Assembly: GCA_963826115.1 (NCBI GenBank)
Contig: CAWGVS010000012.1
Coordinates: 1-64,000, forward strand
Source of the DNA: an uncultured Candidatus Rokubacteria bacterium
GTDB taxonomy: Bacteria > Methylomirabilota > Methylomirabilia > Rokubacteriales > DASRDR01
DNA length: 64,000 nt
Reading direction: 5' to 3'
Below are positions 2,832 to 54,086 of this stretch, piece by piece (the stretch's first letter is position 1; the number at the start of each line of letters is the position of its first letter). A program made the translations under genes and the position numbers. The notes below the pieces were generated by a model. That model was not told the origin of the DNA. It worked only from the letters and a program-made list of their open reading frames with translations, and ran no database searches.

Positions 2832-3526
2832 CGGGCAATCCAGGGCGCCTGCTGACGTACCAGTGCCATGTGCGGCTTGTAGACGCCGGGGAAAAAGACG
2901 ATGCGGCTGTCGAGGGGCAGATCAAGCGCGCAGTCCAGCGTGAAGTGCAGCACGCCGTCGACCCTGGTCCAGACCGGCTCCGCGCCCCCGAGAACATGGG
3001 CGATCCACGACTGGTCAGTTCCCTTGTAGCCGGCGGCGCGCGCCAACGCGGGGCTCCGCGCGGGGTCGAAGCTGGTCCAGACCTCCGCCCGGGCGCCGGC
3101 GTCCATCATCACCATGGATCCGTTGTAGGGCGTGCCCACGACCGAGTCCGAACGGTAGAAAACCGCAGGTTCGGCGCGCTCGAAGAGCGGGTCGAGCGGC
3201 CCGACGACGATGCTGTCAAGATCGATCCAGACGAAGCGTGGGCCAATCAGCTCGCGCATCTCGGGCGCGAAGGCCTTCAGCCGGCACCAGCACCCGCCGA
3301 GCTCGCGCCCTTCGGGCCAGAGCGGGACGACGCGAATCGCGCTCGAAAGGCCCCGACCATCGTCCGTGATACAGACGACGTCATGCGGGATCGAAAGATA
3401 GCGCTGCAGCTCGACCACCTTGCGGTTCACCGCCTCCGCGGAGTAATCGAACAGGATGTGGCGCTTGCGTTGGTCCCGCCATTTCCACAACACGACTTGC
3501 AGACGATCGGCGCCACTGCCCGCCAC
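2819..3526 (-). CDS. GT-A fold glycosyltransferase (small DxD type)
   Basis: VVLWKW...VCITDD...CWCRLKAF...WIDLDSIVVG...YNGSMVMM...GTDQSWI...FFPG; GGAGGG RBS precedes GTG at 3526. Confidence 0.7.
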   Translation of the reverse strand: MAGSGADRLQVVLWKWRDQRKRHILFDYSAEAVNRKVVELQRYLSIPHDVVCITDDGRGLSSAIRVVPLWPEGRELGGCWCRLKAFAPEMRELIGPRFVWIDLDSIVVGPLDPLFERAEPAVFYRSDSVVGTPYNGSMVMMDAGARAEVWTSFDPARSPALARAAGYKGTDQSWIAHVLGGAEPVWTRVDGVLHFTLDCALDLPLDSRIVFFPGVYKPHMALVRQQAPWIARYMP

Positions 3527-20942: not shown

Positions 20943-22322
20943 TCAGACGATGGGCCAGCGGGACCGCGGCAGATCCACGCCGGTCCGCGCGAGCAGGCGC
21001 TCGCCGATTTCCTGGACGCGCGCGAAGAGCCGCGCCTCGTCCACGAAGGACTGGCGGTGGGCGTCGACGACGACGCGGCCGTCCACGATCACGGTGTGGA
21101 CGCTCCCGCCGTCGGCGTTGTAGACGAGGTTGTTGATCGGGTTCCACAGCGCCTGCCACTCCGGCCGCGCGGTGTCGAAGAGGACGAGGTCGGCGCGCTT
21201 GCCGGGCTCGAGCGAGCCGATCTCGTCCCCGAGCCCGAGCGCCCGCGCCCCGAGGCGCGTCCCCATCTCCAGCGCCCGCTCGGCGGGGATCTGGCGCGTG
21301 TCCTGGCGGGCGTCCTTGTACTGGAGGGCCGCCATGTTCATCGTCCGCACCATGTCGAGGTGGTTCGAGTTGTTCGGAGAGTCGGAGCCGAGCGCCACCC
21401 GGACGCCGGCGTCGAGCAGCTCCGGCATCCGGCCGTGCTGCGCCGTCCCGCCGCCGCGCTTGGCGTTCATCACCGGACAGATCGCCACGGCCGTGCCGGT
21501 GCGGACCAGGCACGCGATCTCGTCCCCGTCCAGGCCGGGCGCGTGCGACAGGAGGACCCTCGGCCCGAGGACGCCGAGCGATTCGAGGTACTGGGTGGGG
21601 CCGAGCCCGTGCCGGGCCAGGGACTCCCGTCGCGGCTCGGGGCCGCTCAGGTGATGCAGCGTGAGCCCGGTGCCGTGCTCGTCGGCCGCGCGCTTCACGC
21701 CTCGCAGCAGAGGCGCGCTGCACGACTCCGGCGAGAACGGCATCGCCCAGGCCCGGATCCGCCCCTCGAGCCGCCCGTCCCACTTTCGGAGAAAGGCCGC
21801 GGTGCGCGCGATCCCCTCCTCCGTCGGGTAGCGCGGCAGCGGGAACGGCGCGTCCAGATCCGACACGCCCTCGCCGAGGATCACGCGGATGCCGGCATCC
21901 GCGTAGGCCTGGAGACACGCGTCCGGGAACTTGGTGCTGCCCGGGTCGACGAAGGCGACGGTGCCCCCCCGCAGCAGCTCGACGAGACCGAGGAGCGTCG
22001 TGTGGTACTCCTCGTCCTCCGTCATCGCCATCTGGAGCCGGAACACGTAGGGCAGCGGGCTCCCCAGGTCGTCCAGGAAGATGCCGCGTACGGGGTGGGC
22101 GTAGCTCACGTGCATGTGGCCGTTGACGAAGCCCGGCGTCACGAGGAACTGACGGGCGTCGATCGTGCGGTCGGCGGGGACGTCCCGGAGCTCGGCCGCC
22201 TTGCCGACCCGGCGGATCCGCGAGCCCTCGATCAGGATGGAGCCGTCCTGGATGATCCGCCGCGTGTCGTCCAGGGTGACCACGTAGCGGGCGTGCTCGA
22301 TCTTGAGCGTCGGGGTTGGCAC
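20943..22322 (-). CDS. Amidohydrolase superfamily protein (MtaD/AtzA-like subgroup)
   Basis: PGFVNGHMH, SHA, ALGSD, IGSLEPGKRADLV. Confidence 0.88.
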   Translation of the reverse strand: MPTPTLKIEHARYVVTLDDTRRIIQDGSILIEGSRIRRVGKAAELRDVPADRTIDARQFLVTPGFVNGHMHVSYAHPVRGIFLDDLGSPLPYVFRLQMAMTEDEEYHTTLLGLVELLRGGTVAFVDPGSTKFPDACLQAYADAGIRVILGEGVSDLDAPFPLPRYPTEEGIARTAAFLRKWDGRLEGRIRAWAMPFSPESCSAPLLRGVKRAADEHGTGLTLHHLSGPEPRRESLARHGLGPTQYLESLGVLGPRVLLSHAPGLDGDEIACLVRTGTAVAICPVMNAKRGGGTAQHGRMPELLDAGVRVALGSDSPNNSNHLDMVRTMNMAALQYKDARQDTRQIPAERALEMGTRLGARALGLGDEIGSLEPGKRADLVLFDTARPEWQALWNPINNLVYNADGGSVHTVIVDGRVVVDAHRQSFVDEARLFARVQEIGERLLARTGVDLPRSRWPIV

Positions 22323-22490
22323 GAGTCGGCGGCTCCCTCCGGCGAGCTACGGCGAGGATGGCATCCGCGCTGCGGCGGCGCAAGCTGCCCGGGCCGTCCG
22401 GGCGCGCTCCCGGCGGGCCGGCGCGTTCGTCGCGGCCGATGGCCCGGGTACTATATACTGGCGGCGCCGATTTCAGGCCGCGGAGGATCG

Positions 22491-23690
22491 ATGGACTTCA
22501 GGTTGACTCCCGAGCAGGAGACATTTCGCGCCGAGGTGCGCGCCTGGCTCTCGGCCAACCTGCCGCCGGACTGGTCCGCACGGGCCGTCGTCACCGAGGT
22601 GCCGCGCGCGGAGCTCTACGATTTCGGCCGCCACTGGCAGCGGAAGCTCCACGAGGCCGGGCTCCTCGGGCTCACCTGGCCGAAGGAGTACGGGGGCCGC
22701 GGGCTCACGTGGATGGAGGAACTCCTGCTCCACGAGGAGCTGATCCAGCACCGGGCGCCGCCGCCCCTCAACGTCCTCGGACTCGGCATGGCCGGCCCGA
22801 CCATCATCGCGTACGGCACCGACGCCCAGAAGCAGCGCTACCTCCAGAAGATCCTGACGTGCGAGGAGATCTGGTGCCAGGGCTACTCCGAGCCCAACGC
22901 GGGCTCCGACCTGGCGTCGCTCCAGACCCGGGCCGTGCGGGACGGCGACCACTACGTCGTCAACGGCCAGAAGGTCTGGACGAGCCTCGCGCAGATCTCG
23001 GACTGGATGATGCTGCTCGCCCGCACCGACCCGAGCGCGCCGAAGCACAAGGGCCTCACGTACTTCCTCCTCGACATGCACTCCCCCGGCATCACCGTGC
23101 GGCCGCTCCGCCAGATCACCGGCGACGCCGAGTTCAACGAGGTGTTCTTCGAGAACGTGCGGGTGCCCGCGGAGAACATCCTCGGCGTCGAGGGCCAGGG
23201 CTGGCAGGTCGGGATCACGACGCTCATGTACGAGCGCCTCGCGCTCGGGTTCGGGCTCCAGGCCCGATTCGAGATCGCCACCGGCGCGACGCTCGACCTG
23301 GCCCGCCGGATGTCGCGCGAGGGCGAGCCCGCCGCGAAGAGCCCGGTCATGCGCCAGCGACTGGCGCAGCTGGTCATCGACAACGCGGTGTTCAAGTACA
23401 CCGCCAAGCGGGCCATCACCAAGCTCCTCCGGGGCGAGATGCCCGGCTCCGAGGCCTCGGCCGGCAAGATCTGGTGGTGCGACCGCCACCAGGCCCTCCA
23501 GGATCTCGCCCAGGACCTCCTGGGCTCGTACGGGCAGCTCGCGAAGGGCTCGCCCTGGGCCGTCGACCGTGGCAGCTGGCACTACACGTTCCTCCGGTCG
23601 CGCGCCAACTCGATCGAGGGCGGCACGACGGAGATCCAGCGCAACATCCTGGCCGAGCGCGTCCTCGGTCTGCCGAAGGACTCGGCCTGA
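22491..23690 (+). CDS. Acyl-CoA dehydrogenase (catalytic subunit type)
   Basis: WCQGYSEPNAGSDLASL, NGQKVWTS, FNEVFF, IEGGTTEIQRNI; GGAGG RBS. Confidence 0.93.
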   Translation: MDFRLTPEQETFRAEVRAWLSANLPPDWSARAVVTEVPRAELYDFGRHWQRKLHEAGLLGLTWPKEYGGRGLTWMEELLLHEELIQHRAPPPLNVLGLGMAGPTIIAYGTDAQKQRYLQKILTCEEIWCQGYSEPNAGSDLASLQTRAVRDGDHYVVNGQKVWTSLAQISDWMMLLARTDPSAPKHKGLTYFLLDMHSPGITVRPLRQITGDAEFNEVFFENVRVPAENILGVEGQGWQVGITTLMYERLALGFGLQARFEIATGATLDLARRMSREGEPAAKSPVMRQRLAQLVIDNAVFKYTAKRAITKLLRGEMPGSEASAGKIWWCDRHQALQDLAQDLLGSYGQLAKGSPWAVDRGSWHYTFLRSRANSIEGGTTEIQRNILAERVLGLPKDSA

Positions 23691-24838
23691 TGGACTTCGG
23701 CTTCAGCCAGGAACAGGACCTCCTCCGCCAGACGGCGCGGACCTTCCTCGAGAAGGAGTGCCCGTCCGGGTTCGTCCGCCGGATGATGGACGACGAGACC
23801 GGCACGACCGACGAGTTCTGGGCGAAGCTCGCGGAGCTCGGGTGGCTCGGCCTGGTCACGCCCGAGGCGGACGGCGGGATGGGCCTCGGGCTCGTCGACC
23901 TCACCGTCGTGCTGGAAGAGATGGGGCGGGCCGTGATGCCGGGGCCGTTCTTCTCGACGGTGCTCCTCGGCGGCCTCGCGATCCGGGATGCGGGCTCGGA
24001 GGCGCAGCGGACGGCGTGGCTTCCCCGGATCGCCACGGGAGAGGCCCGGGTGACCTTCGCCCTCCTCGAGGAAAGCGCCCGGTGGGATGCCGCCGGCGTG
24101 GAGCTCTCCGCGAAGCCCGGCAAGAACGGGGGCTTCGTCCTGTCGGGCACGAAGCTCTTCGTCCTCGATGGGCACTCGGCGGACCTCCTGATCGTGGCCG
24201 CCCGGACCGCCCGCGCGACGAAGGACGATCCGAGCCACGGCGTCAGCCTCTTCCTGGTCCCGACAGACCGGAAGGGCGTCCGGACCACGCTCCTCCCGAC
24301 GATGGACCAGACGCGGAAGCTCGCCGAGGTCGCGCTCTCGCGAGTCGAGGTCGGCGCCGACGCGCTCCTGGGCCCCGTCCACCAGGGCTGGCCGATCGCG
24401 GCCCGGGTGCTGGACCGCGCGGCCGTCGCGCTCTGCGCCGAGATGTGCGGCGGGGCCCAGCGGGTGCTGGATCTCTCGACCGACTACGCCAAGATGCGCG
24501 TCGCCTTCGGAAAGCCGATCGGCACCTACCAGGCCGTGAAGCACCGGTGCGCCGACATGCTGGTGGCGATCGAGAACGCGAAGTCCATCACCTACTACGC
24601 CGCGTGGGCCGCCGACCAGGACGCGCCCGACGCCGCGCTGGCCGCCTCGATGGCCAAGGCCTTCGTGTCCGACGCGTACCGGAAGGTCGCCGGCGACGGG
24701 ATCCAGGTCCACGGCGGGATCGGCTTCACCTGGGAGCACGATCTGCACCTTTACTTCAAGCGCGCCAAGGGCTCCGAGGTCGCGTTCGGGGACGCGACGC
24801 TCCACCGGGAGCGCGTGGCGCGCCTCCTGGAGCTCTAG
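23690..24838 (+). CDS. Acyl-CoA dehydrogenase (partner subunit, probable alpha2beta2 pair)
   Basis: TGATG coupling with the upstream gene; EEMGRAVMPGP, FGKPIGTYQAVKH, IQVHGGIGFTWEHDLHLYFKRA. Confidence 0.92.
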   Translation: MDFGFSQEQDLLRQTARTFLEKECPSGFVRRMMDDETGTTDEFWAKLAELGWLGLVTPEADGGMGLGLVDLTVVLEEMGRAVMPGPFFSTVLLGGLAIRDAGSEAQRTAWLPRIATGEARVTFALLEESARWDAAGVELSAKPGKNGGFVLSGTKLFVLDGHSADLLIVAARTARATKDDPSHGVSLFLVPTDRKGVRTTLLPTMDQTRKLAEVALSRVEVGADALLGPVHQGWPIAARVLDRAAVALCAEMCGGAQRVLDLSTDYAKMRVAFGKPIGTYQAVKHRCADMLVAIENAKSITYYAAWAADQDAPDAALAASMAKAFVSDAYRKVAGDGIQVHGGIGFTWEHDLHLYFKRAKGSEVAFGDATLHRERVARLLEL

Positions 24839-24848
24839 TCCGGGCCGG

Positions 24849-25844
24849 GTGATGGCGGCGCCACCCGACAAGCTCAAGCTCAAGCGCCAGGTCCTCCGGG
24901 GGGCCGTCCGGGAGAACGTCGAGACGATCCGCGGGCTCCCGCCGGCGCCGCTCCGCGCCGGCACGCGTCTCCGCCGGGGCGCGATCCAGGCGACGCTTCT
25001 CGTGGCCCTCCCCGCCCTCGGACTCCTCGCCTACAACCCCCTCTCGGGTAGCGCGCCGGACCGCGCAGCCGTGCTCGCCACGGCCCCGGCGGTCCTGACC
25101 TTCCGAGCGCCGAAGGCGATCGGGCCCGTCACCGCCTCCCTGACGGTCAAGAAGCTCGTCCTGGACCCCGGGCACGGCGGCAACGACTCCGGCGCCCGCG
25201 CCCAGGGGGTGTGGGAGAAGGAGATCACGCTCCACATCGCGCGCGAGCTGCGCGGCCTCCTCAAGCGGGCGAACTACGACGTCGCGATGACCCGGGACGC
25301 CGACAGCTTCGTCTCGCTCCGCCAGCGGGCGCAGATGGCCAACCTAGAGCACGCCGACCTCTTCGTGTCGATCCACGTCAACTCGGTCCCGTCGCGGGAG
25401 TGCCACGCGGTCGAGACCTATTACCTCGGGCCGGCCGACGACCCGCGGGCCGAGCAGCTCGCCGGCAAGGAGAACCACGAGTCGGGCTATCATCTGGCGG
25501 ACTTCCGCCGGCTCCTCGAGGGCGTGTACGTCCACGTCCGGCAGGCGGAGTCGCGGAAGCTGGCCCAGGTCGTCCAGCAGGAGCTGGTCTCGGCCCTGGG
25601 CGACACGAATCCCGCGATCCGGGACAAGGGGGTGCGCAGCGCGCCGTTCCTGGTCCTCGTGGCCAGCGAGAGCCCCGGCATCCTCGCCGAGGTCTCGTGC
25701 CTGTCGAACGACGAGGAGGCGGGGCGGCTCGCCGACCCGTCCTATCGCCAGCGCATCGCGCGCGCGCTCTTCCACGGCATCCACGCGTACGCGGAGGCTC
25801 GCAACCGCGTCGCCAAGCTGGGCCAGGCCCCAGGGAGCCCGTAG
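24849..25844 (+). CDS. N-acetylmuramoyl-L-alanine amidase (Amidase_3) with N-terminal membrane anchor
   Basis: LVLDPGHGG, EKEITL, LFVSIHVNS and ILAEVSCLSN carry the Zn ligands and catalytic Glu; hydrophobic AIQATLLVALPALGLLAY follows a basic N-terminus; no AMIN domain recognised. Confidence 0.92.
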   Translation: MMAAPPDKLKLKRQVLRGAVRENVETIRGLPPAPLRAGTRLRRGAIQATLLVALPALGLLAYNPLSGSAPDRAAVLATAPAVLTFRAPKAIGPVTASLTVKKLVLDPGHGGNDSGARAQGVWEKEITLHIARELRGLLKRANYDVAMTRDADSFVSLRQRAQMANLEHADLFVSIHVNSVPSRECHAVETYYLGPADDPRAEQLAGKENHESGYHLADFRRLLEGVYVHVRQAESRKLAQVVQQELVSALGDTNPAIRDKGVRSAPFLVLVASESPGILAEVSCLSNDEEAGRLADPSYRQRIARALFHGIHAYAEARNRVAKLGQAPGSP

Positions 25845-26864
25845 ATGACCAAGAAGACCGATGTCCTCCACGTCGGCATCGATCTCGGCACCTCCCGCAG
25901 CTCGATCTCCGCGTCGAACGGCGGCCGGCACGTCGTGGAGAGCTACGTCGGCTGGCCGGTCGACATGGTGGCCCGGCGCCTCGTGAAGAAGCCCATCCTG
26001 TTCGGCCGGGAGGCGCTCGACAGCCGGCCGATGCTCGACCTCCGCCGTCCGCTCGAGCGGGGCCTCATCAAGGAGGGGTCGGAACGGGACGAGCTGGCGG
26101 TGCGGGAGCTCCTGCGGCACCTCATCTCGCTCGCGGGCGGGCGCGAGGGTCAGCCGATCCGCGCGGTGGTGGGCGTGCCCGCCGAGGCGCTGCGCGTGAG
26201 CCGGCAGAACCTCCGGAGTGCCGTCAAGGGTGTCGCCGACGGGCTCATGATCGTGTCCGAGCCCTTCGCCGTGTCCTACGGGATGGACGCCCTCCTCCAC
26301 ACGATGATCGTCGACATCGGCGCCGGGACGACCGACTTCTGCGTCATGCGCGGGCGCTACCCGACCGAGGAGGACCAGCGGACGCTCACGAACGCGGGCG
26401 ACTCCATCGACGAGCAGCTGATGACCCTCGTCCGGGCGAAGCACCCCGACGCCCAGTTCTCCATCTACATGGTCCGCGAGTGGAAGGAGAAGTGGAGCTT
26501 CGTCGGCGAACCGCCGGCCCCGGTGGTCGTCACCGTCATGAAGGCCGCCAAGGCGACGCCGATCGACGTCACCAGCGAGATGCGACGGGCGTGCGAGAGC
26601 GTGGTGGCGCCGATCACGGAGACGATGGCCGACCTCCTGGCGCGGGTCGAGCCCGAGTACCAGGAGCGCGTCCGCCACAACATCATCCTGGCGGGGGGGG
26701 GCTCCCAGATCCCCGGGCTCGCCGGGGCGATGGAGAAGGCCCTCGGCGACTACGGCGGCGGCGCCGTGCGCGTGGTGGAGGACCCGGTCTTCGCCGGCTC
26801 GAACGGGAGCCTCGCGATCGCGCTCGACGCCTCCGAGGGCGACTGGGAGTCCCTCGCCGGCTAG
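25845..26864 (+). CDS. MamK-like bacterial actin
   Basis: Actin motifs GIDLGTS, VSEPF, IVDIGAGTTD and ILAGGGS, plus MamK-type segments VGWPVD, PLERG, PTEEDQRTLTNAG, KEKWSFVG, EPEYQ, VEDPVFAG and a C-terminal WxxL. Confidence 0.88.
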   Translation: MTKKTDVLHVGIDLGTSRSSISASNGGRHVVESYVGWPVDMVARRLVKKPILFGREALDSRPMLDLRRPLERGLIKEGSERDELAVRELLRHLISLAGGREGQPIRAVVGVPAEALRVSRQNLRSAVKGVADGLMIVSEPFAVSYGMDALLHTMIVDIGAGTTDFCVMRGRYPTEEDQRTLTNAGDSIDEQLMTLVRAKHPDAQFSIYMVREWKEKWSFVGEPPAPVVVTVMKAAKATPIDVTSEMRRACESVVAPITETMADLLARVEPEYQERVRHNIILAGGGSQIPGLAGAMEKALGDYGGGAVRVVEDPVFAGSNGSLAIALDASEGDWESLAG

Positions 26865-26888
26865 CGCCGGGCCTGGCCGCGCCCCGGG

Positions 26889-26897
26889 TGCTACACT
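26889..26897 (+). promoter_or_regulatory. Extended -10 (TGCTACACT), probable leaderless promoter of the NUDIX-MBL pair
   Basis: TGn-TACACT ends 7 nt before GTG 26905; no SD. Confidence 0.55.
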
Positions 26898-26904
26898 CGC
26901 GGTC

Positions 26905-27702
26905 GTGCCCGTCGAGCCCCGGCCCGCGGCCTCCGTCCTCCTGATCCGGCCCGGCCAGGCGGCGCCCATCGAGGTCTTCCTGATCCGCCGGGCGCGCGAC
27001 ATGCGCTTCCTCGGCGGCTACTACGCCTTCCCCGGCGGCAAGGTCGACCTCGCGGACCGGAGTCACGAGGCCCTCGTCCGGACCCACGGTCTGTCCCCCG
27101 AGGCCGCGGCCCGCGCGATCGGCGACCCGGGCGACGAGGTCCCCGCCCTCGCGTACTGGCTCGCCGGCGTCCGCGAGGTCTTCGAGGAGACCGGCGTGCT
27201 GCTGGCCCGCGACGCCGACGGCCGGCCCGTCGCCGCCGGCGAGCCGCACGTCGCACATCGACTCGAGGGCCACCGGCGGGCGCTCGTCCGCGGGGATCGG
27301 TCGTTCACCGCGGTCCTGGCGGCGGAGGACTGGACGGCCGACGTCGGGCCGCTCCGCTACCTCTCCCACTTCGTGACGCCGCCGGCGAGCCCGATCCGCT
27401 TCTCCGCCCGCTTCTTCCTGTGCCCCGTGCCGGCCGGCCAGGGGCCGCGGCTGATCGCCGAGGAAGCCTCCGAGGGCTTCTGGGTCGATCCGGCCGAGGC
27501 GCACCGGCGCTTCCGGGCCCACGAGTGGCCGATGGCGGAACCGGCGGAGTACGGCACCCAGTACCTCGCCCAGTTCGAGTCGTGCGAGGCGGTGTGGCGC
27601 CACCACGCCGACGGCCGGCCGAAGTTCGACGGCATCATCGACCGCCTCGACGCCGCGCGGTACTACCTCTTCGACTGGTCGACAGTGGTGCGGCCCGCGT
27701 GA
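26905..27702 (+). CDS. NUDIX hydrolase (NUDT19-like)
   Basis: PRPAASVLL, FPGGKVD, GVREVFEETG, FVTP...RFSARFF. Confidence 0.88.
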   Translation: MPVEPRPAASVLLIRPGQAAPIEVFLIRRARDMRFLGGYYAFPGGKVDLADRSHEALVRTHGLSPEAAARAIGDPGDEVPALAYWLAGVREVFEETGVLLARDADGRPVAAGEPHVAHRLEGHRRALVRGDRSFTAVLAAEDWTADVGPLRYLSHFVTPPASPIRFSARFFLCPVPAGQGPRLIAEEASEGFWVDPAEAHRRFRAHEWPMAEPAEYGTQYLAQFESCEAVWRHHADGRPKFDGIIDRLDAARYYLFDWSTVVRPA

Positions 27703-28547
27703 GCGCGCCGCGGCCGCCGGGTATTCCCGAGACGGCGCGGCTCACGCCGCTGGTGGGGCGCGTCCTCGGGCTGAACCCCGGGCTCATGACGGGGCCCGGC
27801 ACCAACACGTACCTGGTCGGCGCGCGCCGGCCCATCCTGCTCGACACCGGCGCCGGGGTCCGCGGGTACATCCGGCTCCTGACCGCGTTCCTCGGCGCGG
27901 AGGGCGAGACCGAGGTGTCGCGGGTGATCCTGACGCACCGGCACGTCGACCACATCGGCGGCGTGCCCGACGTCCGGCGCGCCTTCCCGCGCGTGCCCGT
28001 CGCCAAGCTCGTGAAGAACGACGCGACGCTGCCGGTTCCCATGGAGTCGCTCGGCGACGGCGCGGTGATCCGGGGCGACGGCGTCACCCTCCACGCGATC
28101 TACACGCCCGGCCACGCGTCCGATCACCTCTGCTACTACCTCGAGGAGGAACGGGCGCTCTTCACCGGCGACCTGATCCTGGGCGGCTCGACGACGGTGA
28201 TCCCGCCCGACGACGGCGACCTCGCGGACTACCTCGCGTCCCTCCGGCGGGTGCTCGAGCTCGACGTCCAGCGCATCTACCCGGCCCACGGGCCGGTCCT
28301 CGAGCCGGCGCGGCCGGTGATCGAGGGCTACATCGCCCACCGCCTCGAGCGCGACCGGCAGATCCTCGCCGCCGTCGGGGACGGCGCCGAGACCGTCGCC
28401 GACATCGTGGCCCGCGTCTACCGCGAGGTCGCGCCCGCGCTCCATCCGGTGGCGCGCCTGTCCGTGCTCTCGCACCTCCAGAAGCTCGAGCGCGAGGAAC
28501 GCGTCCGCCGCCTCGCCGGCGACCCGCCGCGCTTCCGCCTCGCCTGA
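27699..28547 (+). CDS. Metallo-beta-lactamase fold hydrolase (LACTB2-like, with winged-helix tail)
   Basis: NPGLMTGPGTNTY, THRHVDHIGG, TPGHASDH, FTGD, YPAHG; GTGA overlap. Confidence 0.9.
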   Translation: MSAPRPPGIPETARLTPLVGRVLGLNPGLMTGPGTNTYLVGARRPILLDTGAGVRGYIRLLTAFLGAEGETEVSRVILTHRHVDHIGGVPDVRRAFPRVPVAKLVKNDATLPVPMESLGDGAVIRGDGVTLHAIYTPGHASDHLCYYLEEERALFTGDLILGGSTTVIPPDDGDLADYLASLRRVLELDVQRIYPAHGPVLEPARPVIEGYIAHRLERDRQILAAVGDGAETVADIVARVYREVAPALHPVARLSVLSHLQKLEREERVRRLAGDPPRFRLA

Positions 28548-28709
28548 CGGGGCCGGCGCCCGCCAGGCCACCCGCATCCTTCCCGATCCACCCCGTCCAC
28601 CGTTCTCGACGGGGGGCCCGACCTCCGGCCGCTGCTCGGCCAATTCCCACGCGCGCTAACTATCCGCCAAATGCGCGCCACGCGCCGGCGGGGGGCGCGC
28701 CGCGTCACC

Positions 28710-28725
28710 TGGCACCACCGTTGCT
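28710..28725 (+). promoter_or_regulatory. Sigma54 (RpoN) -24/-12 promoter
   Basis: TGGCAC-CACCG-TTGCT matches the TGGCAC-N5-TTGC consensus, about 20 nt before the pilin ATG. Confidence 0.8.
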
Positions 28726-28746
28726 CGTGAGTGGGCGGAGGCCGAC

Positions 28747-29196
28747 ATGCGGGATCAAGAGCGCGGGGTCACGCTGGTCGAGGTCGTCGTCGTCCTGCTG
28801 GTGCTCGCCGTCCTCATGGGCGTCGCCGTCCCCACGGTCGGCGCGGCCCTGGAGGGGTACCGGGCCGGCGGCGCGACCGCCGATCTCTACGCGGCGGTCC
28901 ACCTCGCGAAGGCGCGTGCGCGCGCCCGGGGCGTGACGCACGCGCTCGTCCTCGATCCCGACGGACGCGGCTTCCGGATCGTCGCCGACCCCGGCGGCGA
29001 CGCGCAGACGGTCGAGGGGCCGCACCGCCTCGGGGACGGGGCGGTCGCGACCACCAACGTCACGATCCAGTTCTCGTCGAAGGGCTTTGCCGTGCCCGCG
29101 GGGACCATCACGATCCGGAGCGGCGGCGAGACCCGCCGCATCGTGGTGAGCCTCCTCGGCCGGGCGCGCATCGCTGCCGGCGAGGACCCGAGCTGA
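28747..29196 (+). CDS. Type IV pilin-like protein (GspH/FimT family)
   Basis: Prepilin site RG|VTLVE followed by a hydrophobic helix; IQFSSKG and IVVSLLGRARI resemble the FimT/GspH C-terminus. Confidence 0.88.
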   Translation: MRDQERGVTLVEVVVVLLVLAVLMGVAVPTVGAALEGYRAGGATADLYAAVHLAKARARARGVTHALVLDPDGRGFRIVADPGGDAQTVEGPHRLGDGAVATTNVTIQFSSKGFAVPAGTITIRSGGETRRIVVSLLGRARIAAGEDPS

Positions 29197-29207
29197 GGAG
29201 GTGCCTC

Positions 29208-29474
29208 ATGGCCACGACGGACACCCGGCGGGGACGGAACGGGCGGCAGGACGTGGGCGCGGCCTGGCAGAAGAGCGGCTCGAGCGGGCCGTTCCTCGCC
29301 ATCGAGATCGACGCCGGCGCGGTGATCGCCGACGCGATCGCGGCGCTCCTGCGCGGCGACGAGCGCCTCAGCTACCTCGCCTTCACCAACGAGAAGAAGC
29401 CCGACGGGCGGGAGGGCCAGCCCGACCTGCGCTTCGTCCGCCCGCTCCGGCGCGGCGGCGACGACGCGGCCTGA
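29208..29474 (+). CDS. Small hypothetical protein, DUF736-like motifs
   Basis: GAGGAGG RBS; VGAAWQK...FLAIEID and AFTNEKK...QPDLRF. Confidence 0.55.
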   Translation: MATTDTRRGRNGRQDVGAAWQKSGSSGPFLAIEIDAGAVIADAIAALLRGDERLSYLAFTNEKKPDGREGQPDLRFVRPLRRGGDDAA

Positions 29475-29855
29475 GGGTCCGGCGGCGACGCCGGCCCACC
29501 GAGGACTCGCCCCGACGGGGCGGCGCGTCGATTGCCGGGCCCGGCGCCAGCCCGGTCGGATGGCGGCGCCGCGTCACCCCGAGACGTCGGCGATCTTTCT
29601 CGACGCCGTCGCCCTCCGGATCATCGCGGGCTTCGCGTGGATGGCGTAGCTCACCCGTGACATCGGCCGCATGGTCAAGGCCGTGGCGGGCCAGATGTCC
29701 CCGGAGGCCGAGACGACTCGCGCCACCCGCCCGCCCGCGACCGCTGACCCCGGCCGCAGCCGCGTCATTCCCCGGCCACGCTCCTCTCCACGCCCTTCTG
29801 TGTCAGACTGGGCTCGCCGCACGTGACGCGCTGCTTGCCGAAAGGAGCGACGACG

Positions 29856-53343: not shown

Positions 53344-54086
53344 GGCGAAGGACGGCGACCGACTGGCGCCGGCGGACCCTGCGGGCCACCGCGCCCCGGC
53401 CCGGGCGACGCCTGGCGCGCGGCGGCCGGATCCTCCTGCTACTCCTGTCGGTAACCGGCTGCGCGATCGAGCCGGCCCGGCCGGCCCTCGTGCCGCCGGC
53501 GGCCGAGCCGCCCGGCGCCGTCGCGCTGATCCCGCCGCCGATCATCTCACGGTTCGGCGAGTGGCGCGGCGAGGGCGGGGCGGCCACGCCGACGCGCCAC
53601 GCGGGCATCGACATCCGGGCGACGACCGGGACGCCGGTCCTGGCGGCCGCCGACGGCGTCGTCCTGCGCACGGGCACCCAGGCCTTCGCCGGGCGGCTCA
53701 TCGTGATCGAGCACGACGTCGATCTCACGACCGCCTACTACCACCTCTCGGCGATCGACGTCCTGGGGGGACAGGTGGTCCGACGAGGCGAGCCCATCGG
53801 GCGGGTGGGCAGCACCGGGAACGCGACGGCGCCGCACCTCCACTTCGGCGTGTGCCGGCGCGAGAACGGCGCCTGCGGCGAGCGGATCGACGGCGGCTGG
53901 GAAGACCCGACGCGGCACTGGATCGCCGCGAACCCGTGCTTCGTGGCGGGCCAGGGCTACGCGCCGCAAGGTCGCCGGCTCACCTACCCGGTGCCGTGCG
54001 CGCCGGCGCCCGCCGCGAACGCCCCGGTCGAGGAGCGGGCGCCCGGCGCCCCGCTCGCCAGCCGGCCGTCGGCCCGGCCCGCCTAG
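53340..54086 (+). CDS. M23 metallopeptidase, probable lipoprotein
   Basis: Lipobox-like LLSVTGC, HAGIDI, YYHLS, GSTGNATAPHLHF. Confidence 0.85.
   Translation: MRRRTATDWRRRTLRATAPRPGRRLARGGRILLLLLSVTGCAIEPARPALVPPAAEPPGAVALIPPPIISRFGEWRGEGGAATPTRHAGIDIRATTGTPVLAAADGVVLRTGTQAFAGRLIVIEHDVDLTTAYYHLSAIDVLGGQVVRRGEPIGRVGSTGNATAPHLHFGVCRRENGACGERIDGGWEDPTRHWIAANPCFVAGQGYAPQGRRLTYPVPCAPAPAANAPVEERAPGAPLASRPSARPA

Follow-up and report, generated by a model that had tools for sequence, protein, structure and literature searches.

The 64,000-nucleotide window analyzed here, from the genome of an uncultured Candidatus Rokubacteria bacterium (assembly GCA_963826115.1, contig CAWGVS010000012.1, positions 1 to 64,000 of the forward strand), carries two abutting genes that encode a peptidoglycan amidase with an Amidase_3 domain and an actin-like ATPase of the MamK family. 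We refer to this pair as the cassette, and all positions are those of the window. In the initial annotation, it was suggested that the N-terminal tail of the amidase might dock on the actin filament and thereby pattern hydrolysis of the wall. The features of the cassette are as follows.

24852..25844, + strand: amidase gene, 330 amino acids from the ATG at 24852 or 331 from an alternative GTG start at 24849 (open reading frame, translation and Amidase_3 match)
24870..24935, + strand: conserved tail helix, residues 7-28 (ATG numbering), core ...LRxAVRENV..., predicted actin-docking motif
24981..25034, + strand: single hydrophobic helix, residues 44-61, following RLRRGAI, which resembles a twin-arginine translocation (Tat) motif; putative N-in signal anchor
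25158..25784, + strand: Amidase_3 catalytic domain with conserved metal-binding and catalytic residues (Pfam match)
25443..25517, + strand: insertion matching the regulatory (autoinhibitory) helix region of AmiA/AmiB/AmiC (alignment with solved relatives, AEQLAGKENHES)
25842..25847, + strand: stop/start junction TAG/ATG with a 0-nt spacer (read from the sequence)
25845..26864, + strand: gene for a MamK-family actin-like ATPase, 339 amino acids (NCBIfam, solved relatives and motifs)

As first read, the amidase stop codon TAG (25842-25844) directly abuts the actin gene, whose ATG begins at the next base, 25845. The 0-nt spacer was also found in loci of the same genus, and a 1-nt gap or a 4-nt overlap in other lineages. 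The G+C content at third codon positions is 0.96 in the amidase frame and 0.98 in the actin frame, as expected of real genes. The window as a whole has a G+C content of about 72%, and the source genome (6.24 Mb) is rated 99% complete with 5% contamination. Consistent with the initial annotation, no mreC, mreD, rodA or pbp2 was found within ±5 kb of the cassette.

Conservation of the gene pair

A search of 41 related genomes (G000 included) for the actin at E ≤1e-30 gave matches in 21, namely 19 of the 20 from the same family and 1 of the 17 from the sister family, and the amidase adjoins the actin in all 21. Species-representative genomes contained 452 stretches with relatives of the window's actin (clade A). 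The best 80 of these, 69-98% identical, were examined; they belong to Methylomirabilota, Thermoanaerobaculia, Holophagales, Binatia and 'delta' bins, and the amidase gene lies directly upstream of the actin gene in 78, the other 2 having no upstream DNA. Furthermore, a scan centered on a Holophagales copy yielded 77 loci, of which 45 were dropped as duplicates, and the amidase was present in 32 of the 32 new loci. For the sister clade (clade B, representative P0125), which has 141 relatives in species-representative genomes, 80 loci were examined from Desulfobulbaceae, Nitrospirota, Aminicenantes, Gammaproteobacteria, Rhodospirillaceae, Methylomirabilales and Chrysiogenales. The amidase was again directly upstream in 78, including 5 in which the alignment overlaps the actin start by 1-13 nt, and the remaining 2 had no upstream DNA. 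Summed over both clades, the amidase is directly upstream in 188 of 188 testable loci, so chance is no explanation, and the pairing singled out in the window extends far beyond its own lineage.

A third clade behaves differently. Among the 107 relatives of P0130 (clade C, Planctomycetota), an amidase was found within 4 kb of the actin in 0 of 74 loci, 6 more loci being too short, and a conserved gene without a Pfam match lies upstream instead. The pairing is thus specific to certain clades and no general property of MamK-like genes, which argues for a real evolutionary unit. A protein search of 1.84 billion representatives at E ≤1e-30 returned 185 proteins, of which 78 were full-length and were used for a tree. 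Labeled with NCBIfam scores, this tree resolved several clades, among them that of the window, one with BeeR (506 bits) and one presumed to contain the true MamK proteins (508 bits). Clustering of the open reading frames in the flanks of clade A placed the actin in 80 of 80 loci and the amidase in 79, and the next real cluster in 31; one large flank cluster consists, in our reading, of antisense shadow frames. In clade B, the next cluster beyond actin and amidase occurs in 8 of 80 loci. Cultured carriers were looked for in clade A, which yielded metagenome-assembled genomes only.

In the window, two acyl-CoA dehydrogenase genes precede the amidase on the same strand, the second ending at 24838, about 10 nt before it, and the actin is followed by a NUDIX-like frame (from 26905), a metallo-β-lactamase-fold frame and a GspH-like pseudopilin. 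In a genome of the same genus that is 95% complete (G004), the actin has no match. Here, the acyl-CoA dehydrogenase gene (87% identical) and the NUDIX gene (85%) lie about 210 nt apart, with an unrelated spacer between them (locus L357, G004:C26:446000-455000, at about 3150-3362; window counterpart 24839-26904), and homology to the window resumes about 30 nt before the NUDIX start. The two genes have been lost or gained as one unit. The same cassette-free joint, from 24844 to 26904, was seen in a contig from an RNA library (run X2), which counts for little because it is a single contig at 90% likeness. In another genome of the same genus, G013 (70% complete), the actin occurs in three frame-shifted pieces and the amidase in two (L025, L026 and L028; G013:C15:~323400-325400), which reflects either decay or assembly errors. 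Eight RNA runs had sequence words in common with the query, each with less than a tenth of them, and in the four examined, from soil or rhizosphere libraries, contigs of relatives 90-99% alike were present. Three of these contigs (records 7, 19 and 31), each from a different study, run across the amidase-actin junction and cover over 31 bases on either side of it, and that of record 31 has 2 differences in 175 nt; such contigs give no start, end, strand or level of RNA, and the parts they do not cover carry no meaning.

The initial annotation had also credited the gene on the NUDIX side with a promoter of its own, from which the actin was taken as the probable end of the unit. This is unbacked: a consensus scan of 22000-29500 returned 0 promoter-like and 0 terminator-like sites, and is itself uninformative because of the 72% G+C. 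A TAnACT hexamer ends about 8 nt before the NUDIX GTG and is kept in the cassette-free relative (window 26880-26905; L357:3120-3180). The conserved stretch of about 30 nt that includes it may serve, in line with the initial annotation, as the promoter of a NUDIX transcript with a short leader or none. The longest NUDIX-like (26905-27702) and metallo-β-lactamase-fold (27420-28547) frames overlap by 283 nt in different reading frames, which may reflect other true start codons, a frameshift or a fusion. The GspH-like pseudopilin (28660-29196), which has an N-terminal methylation motif, lies 1.8 kb 3' of the cassette, and a frame with an M23/LytM domain (53595-53861) lies 27 kb 3' of it.

Elsewhere in the genome, no further MamK-like gene accompanies the one in the cassette. 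A canonical mreB (557.8 bits) with mreC and mreD is located on the same contig, about 283 kb away. A second amidase, 585 amino acids long and weakly matching AMIN, resembles a conventional one; the genome also holds five open reading frames with M23/LytM domains and four SPOR matches. Given these genes, the cassette adds to the elongation and separation genes and replaces none. The five M23/LytM-domain proteins could be activators of the cassette amidase.

The two proteins and their predicted contact

The amidase was aligned as the window protein plus the 63 loci with a settable start; 15 of the 78 were omitted because of contig ends or ambiguity. This alignment favors ATG 24852 as the start. 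The sole Pfam domain is Amidase_3 (PF01520; residues 104-312, E 4.5e-46, 157.5 bits against a cut-off of 27), and no Pfam match to AMIN or SPOR was obtained in the protein, which bears out the earlier description of one intact catalytic domain without a targeting domain. The best solved relatives are Bartonella AmiB (3ne8), Escherichia coli AmiA (8c2o) and AmiC (4bin), with which the catalytic domain aligns end to end. All 64 amidases have H108, E122, H175 and E280 (ATG numbering), presumably the Zn ligands and the catalytic Glu of the family. The stretch AEQLAGKENHES aligns with the matching stretch of AmiB 3ne8 and AmiA 8c2o. In this regulatory-helix region, N208 is invariant and E207 nearly so, and helices 198-208 and 215-222 of an AlphaFold2 model have a lower predicted local distance difference test (pLDDT) score. 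Work on AmiB and AmiA is said to have revealed autoinhibition by this helix, and the cassette amidase may be autoinhibited likewise. Because the metal-binding and catalytic residues are invariant and the insertion with its E-N pair aligns with AmiA and AmiB, the cassette amidase is most likely an active but regulated enzyme of the cell-separation type that has no usual AMIN domain. The equivalog models all score under their cut-offs (AmiC 101.5 against 700; AmiA 99.4 against 400; AmiB 85.4 against 532), as does CwlD (TIGR02883), with 125.5 bits in two stretches against 221.55.

In several Acidobacteriota, a third gene overlaps or abuts the actin stop in at least 14 of the 80 clade-A loci (L084:7017-8429; L041, L043, L049, L058, L063, L071, L079, L082, L085, L086, L088, L094 and L096), and its products have N-terminal sequence in common. 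The protein of L084, the one scanned, has a SPOR domain (30.3 bits) at its C-terminus, in addition to the conserved N-terminal region and a Pro-rich stretch. SPOR domains bind glycans denuded by amidases, so a SPOR protein as third gene product fits real amidase activity. A tblastn search at E ≤1e-3 found no homologue of this gene in the window's genome.

The best family of the actin is NCBIfam MamK (NF040964), with 367.1 bits under a curated cut-off of 400, ahead of BeeR (214 bits, cut-off 530) and MreB (65.5 bits, cut-off 293). The solved relatives are MamK (5ljw/5jyg/5ljv, E 3e-76 over residues 8-337), BeeR (8r2n, 150 bits) and MreB (52 bits). Scores against the MamK model are 392.7 for P0123, the nearest representative, 425.2 for P0125 of the sister clade and 508.2 for P0156 of the presumed true MamK clade. 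DLGTS (D13-S17), DIGAGTTD (D157-D164), GGGS (G284-S287) and the Glu of SEPF (E139) are invariant in 64 of 64 sequences; presumably, these are the phosphate-1, phosphate-2 and adenosine motifs and the catalytic Glu of actin-fold ATPases. The nucleotide-binding motifs and a C-terminal Trp/Leu are in common with MamK. Mean column identity across the 64 is 82% for the actin and 53% for the amidase. Because of the homology to MamK and BeeR filaments and the 82% mean column identity across phyla, we infer by analogy that the actin polymerizes into filaments in an ATP-dependent manner.

Two further observations concern the actin. It is about 75-78% identical to copies from other genera of its own family and equally, at 72-78%, to Acidobacteriota copies, and the amidase is 45-57% identical. 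This may mean that the actin is extremely constrained, or else that the cassette, the context of which differs in every lineage, has moved between phyla. In addition, one MamK-like clade (P0136, P0138, P0139, P0143, P0144, P0146, P0149, P0153, P0157 and P0168) comprises proteins of 520-1232 amino acids with a C-terminal actin domain and an N-terminal extension of 190-900 residues without a Pfam match. Among long MamK-like representatives (700-1232 amino acids), no amidase fusion was found, as 10 of 10 scanned had no Pfam domain in the N-terminal extension.

At the N-terminus of the amidase, the 64 proteins have in common a helix motif of about 20 residues, the window form of which is KLKLKRQVLRGAVRENVETIRG. 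Asn22 is invariant in all 64 and is the sole invariant position before residue 87. A pattern search revealed a related motif, ..ILxGVYE[ED]NL, in 55 of the 78 upstream frames of clade B. When a hidden Markov model of the tail motif was run against 50,674 six-frame open reading frames of the genome, it hit the cassette amidase only (E 3.2e-6; next 3.6). A homologue search with tail residues 1-46, a method that needs exact 5-residue words, gave 10 matches, all close amidases, and the tail on no other domain. In the AlphaFold2 model (mean pLDDT 79), a helix at 5-26 is followed by a helix at 32-59, which spans the basic stretch and the hydrophobic segment, then by a linker of weak confidence from residue 59 to about 95-100, and finally by the catalytic domain; only about 40 low-confidence residues connect the hydrophobic helix to the catalytic domain.

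The basic N-terminal segment and the single hydrophobic helix of the initial annotation were both seen. The window tail has 11 Lys and Arg before the helix against 3 in the 20 residues after it, residues 43-69 are uncharged, and the best 19-residue Kyte-Doolittle window scores 1.72. A 19-residue hydrophobic window with a Kyte-Doolittle value of at least 1.4 is present in 119 of 119 tails of clades A and B, with a median uncharged segment of 23-25 residues and a median of 10-11 Lys and Arg ahead of it against 1-2 in the next 20 residues. Because positive-inside charge and an uncharged hydrophobic segment occur together in every tail, the hydrophobic helix points to an N-in signal anchor.

Complex prediction was performed with the actin and amidase tail residues 1-43, each with its alignment of 64, in three runs with three controls. 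The complex scored 0.83 (runs 0.84, 0.83 and 0.83) against 0.00 for the best control, the partner had a pLDDT of at least 64, and at least 86% of the contacts were in common between runs. In calibration, 58 of 80 solved complexes passed the mark, as did 2 of 110 mismatched pairs, counts that are approximate here because our own alignments were supplied. On the tail side, the predicted interface comprises residues 7, 10-11, 13-23, 25-26 and 28, that is, the conserved motif. On the actin side, it comprises residues 120-121, 124, 134-137, 141, 145, 148, 150-151, 170-172, 325, 328-329, 333, 336-337 and 339, and Asn22 lies against actin residues 134-137 in the model. By alignment position, actin residues 134-151, 170-172 and 325-339 correspond to the hinge helix that follows SEPF, the hairpin adjoining it and the helix at the C-terminus. 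From actin structures and alignment position, rather than a computed superposition, we take this site to be the hydrophobic groove between subdomains IA and IIA. The model supports binding of the tail helix to this groove. Docking of the tail on the actin, the core of the original suggestion, has a predicted complex and a conserved tail motif behind it, and its support comes from a model. Moreover, the two clades differ on both sides of the interface: tail position 19 is V/I with actin 333 D/E in clade A and Y/F with Y/F in clade B, and tail position 18 is A with actin 329 A in clade A and V/I with M in clade B. This covariation is consistent with co-evolution of tail and groove.

A proposed link between filament and wall, and its alternatives

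We give a probability of roughly 60% to the reading in which the actin filament holds, positions or moves the amidase, so that the cassette links the cytoskeleton to the wall. The amidase would be inserted N-in: its basic tail would be followed by a single transmembrane helix, a flexible linker in the periplasm and a catalytic domain of the AmiA/B/C type that keeps the regulatory-helix region. The first 25 or so residues of the tail, an amphipathic helix with the invariant Asn, would fit into the hydrophobic groove of the actin. The filament, cytoplasmic and ATP-dependent, would then hold, concentrate or move the periplasmic amidase and decide where stem peptides come off the glycan strands. 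Its cellular role may be cell separation, local wall remodeling or shape, with a SPOR-domain protein added in some Acidobacteriota. A bolder version of this mechanism is doubtful. It holds that the tail, like ParR on ParM, binds the groove where the filament grows; that insertional polymerization pushes or drags the amidase through the plane of the membrane as a cytomotive wall-cutting machine, drawing lines of denuded glycan that the SPOR protein of some Acidobacteriota reads; and that groove-helix membrane tethering is ancestral to the MamK family, with magnetosome positioning derived from it.

Conservation of the pair and the modeled docking favor the proposed link, and several points weigh against it. 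The complex score is the model's own confidence, and it may in part echo helix-in-groove complexes such as ParM-ParR and actin-WH2, since partner helices are known to favor this groove. As for the covariation, it amounts in essence to a single event between clades A and B, and clade C, which has no amidase, has the groove residues of clade B. Between clades, 9 of 22 interface positions are conserved against 61% for the rest of the actin, which is not higher. In the same-genus genome with the empty site, the cassette is dispensable. The RNA contigs lend weak support to co-transcription of amidase and actin, because such libraries may contain DNA, and contigs prove neither transcription nor one common transcript. 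ParR on ParM and arcadin-2 on crenactin both use the IA/IIA groove, a hot spot for partner binding, and in crenactin filaments the neighboring subunit fills it (PMC5173319). Binding of the tail might for this reason be restricted to monomers or to one end of the filament, and not extend to filament sides. Finally, a Tat-like RRxhh motif is present in the window protein (TRLRRGAI) and in 40 of 64 clade-A tails, against 5 of 55 clade-B tails. Tat-dependent export is plausible in the window's lineage on this pattern; it does not in itself imply cleavage of the N-terminus, which is nevertheless conceivable. With the N-terminus removed, there would be no tethering, and any action of the actin would be limited to the precursor.

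Control may run in the opposite direction, although we regard this as improbable. The amidase tail would then regulate or anchor the actin, as a membrane-peptidoglycan anchor, nucleator, end-capper or monomer sequesterer, and the task of the filament would not be amidase placement. The predicted site fits such a role, being the groove used by a depolymerizer (arcadin-2 on crenactin) and by an adaptor (ParR on ParM) (PMC5173319). The actin is also far better conserved than the amidase, and the Planctomycetota clade pairs its actin with another, Pfam-less upstream protein. However, all 64 amidases keep the catalytic and metal-binding residues, which indicates that enzyme activity is under selection and not anchoring alone. 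No second conserved cargo gene was found in the flanks, and no other frame of the genome has the tail motif.

It is distinctly unlikely that the N-terminal 60-70 residues are a long, cleaved Tat-type signal peptide, with the actin binding the precursor only (gating or siting export) or not binding at all. Besides the RRxhh counts given above, RR occurs within 12 residues in 57 of 64 clade-A tails, and the small residues after the helix (LLA/YN) make a cleavage site conceivable. E. coli AmiA and AmiC are Tat substrates. Nevertheless, the scarcity of RRxhh in clade B does not fit this reading. The N-terminal helix with its invariant Asn is conserved, unlike the n-regions of signal peptides, no conserved cleavage motif follows the hydrophobic helix, and the median uncharged segment has a length typical of membrane anchors. 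Uncleaved Tat signal anchors also exist, Rieske proteins among them, so Tat export is compatible with tethering. The assumption in the initial annotation that the N-terminus is not a cleaved signal peptide is thus favored by the conserved helix and put in doubt by the Tat-like motif. The same motif, by making cleavage conceivable, and the unbacked promoter qualify the original interpretation as a whole, of which the conserved pair and the modeled docking stand, and the suggested patterning of wall hydrolysis for shape, division or appendage insertion is an inference.

We consider it very unlikely that the two genes are merely co-regulated (required simultaneously or in equal amounts), without physical contact between their products. 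Adjacency alone is no proof of binding, and blind-picked neighbor genes seldom pass complex prediction. Against this stand the complex score with its null controls, the coincidence of the predicted interface with the only conserved part of the tail, and the survival of the pair through complete turnover of the flanking genes in many phyla. Hardly credible is the reading of the actin as a true magnetosome MamK or as the organism's rod-shape MreB: MamK is the best family and the best solved relative, and close relatives carry the public name 'rod shape-determining protein', but the family score is 367 against a cut-off of 400, the 508-bit clade branches separately, the amidase is the only conserved neighbor, and a canonical mreB (558 bits) with mreC and mreD lies elsewhere. 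Both identities were rejected on flank content, family scores and the separate mreBCD.

Relation to known systems and significance

To our knowledge, MamK-family actins have one known task, the alignment of magnetosomes. The cassette actin belongs to the same subfamily as Magnetospirillum MamK (5LJW, 5LJV, 5JYG; NF040964), its best match by family and by structure. It differs from MamK in scoring under the cut-off and branching apart from the 508-bit clade, and in having no magnetosome gene context at its loci, where the only conserved partner is the amidase. Magnetosome genes were neither found in the window flanks nor conserved over 160 loci, and no genome-wide search for mam genes was made. 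The partner of MamK is the acidic protein MamJ, whereas the putative partner of the cassette actin is a wall hydrolase.

The catalytic domain of the amidase, regulatory-helix insertion included, aligns with those of AmiA, AmiB and AmiC (8C2O, 3NE8, 4BIN), which have LytM-type activators. Unlike the AmiB/AmiC type, the cassette amidase has no AMIN domain, and its AmiA/B/C equivalog scores are far under the cut-offs. Moreover, AmiA/B/C have a plain export signal, and the cassette amidase has a conserved, putatively cytoplasmic tail with an anchor.

The closest working analogue is BacA-LmdC of Hyphomonas neptunium and Rhodospirillum rubrum, in which a bactofilin gene adjoins the gene of a bitopic M23 endopeptidase. 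The short N-terminal cytoplasmic tail of LmdC binds BacA with a dissociation constant of about 15 µM, and the pair, adjacent in 226 species of many phyla, shapes cells (PMC10945521). Like BacA-LmdC, the cassette has adjacent genes, for a putative polymer and for a wall hydrolase predicted to consist of a short cytoplasmic N-tail, one transmembrane helix and a periplasmic catalytic domain. The parts differ: a bactofilin against an actin-fold ATPase, an M23 endopeptidase against an Amidase_3 enzyme, and a β-hairpin tail motif against an amphipathic helix; binding is measured in BacA-LmdC and predicted only in the cassette. In ParM-ParR and crenactin-arcadin-2 (4A62, 5LY3; PMC5173319), the short terminal helix of a neighboring gene product occupies the same groove, a likeness that rests on alignment position. 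ParR, a DNA-binding adaptor, and arcadin-2, a depolymerizer, are cytoplasmic, whereas the cassette helix belongs to a membrane-bound wall enzyme.

The conserved upstream protein of clade C (L189:2973-3893 and the same position in L191-L268; 62 loci listed) has about 270-340 amino acids, looks like a coiled coil and begins with a short amphipathic helix (e.g. ..SLFRMFRENSD..). The MamK family may use N-terminal helices of neighboring gene products as a general docking device.

BeeR of Verrucomicrobiota (8R2N), the second-best family and structure match, is likewise a MamK-related actin of non-magnetotactic bacteria. It forms a three-stranded tubular filament whose function is described as not known, and the accessible part of the source contains no mention of a partner or gene context (PMC11929497). 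The cassette actin stays well below the BeeR cut-off and does not have the disordered N-terminal domain described for BeeR in that part. The initial annotation knew of no described system with this pairing. We found no paper on a pairing of a MamK-type actin with an amidase in the open-access literature, main texts being the scope; the claim stands for this pairing, and the analogous BacA-LmdC has been described (PMC10945521).

These results show that a large, non-magnetic part of the MamK family is locked to a peptidoglycan amidase, with at least 452 + 141 related loci in species-representative genomes, in lineages that include Methylomirabilota, Acidobacteriota, Binatia, Desulfobulbaceae, Nitrospirota, Aminicenantes and Gammaproteobacteria. 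Should the predicted docking be real, the cassette would connect an ATP-driven actin filament directly with a wall hydrolase on the other side of the membrane, without AMIN or SPOR targeting, and would be a second instance, built from unrelated parts, of the bactofilin-LmdC principle. It would also give the orphan annotations 'MamK-like' and 'rod shape-determining protein' a testable function, together with a defined peptide of 25 residues.

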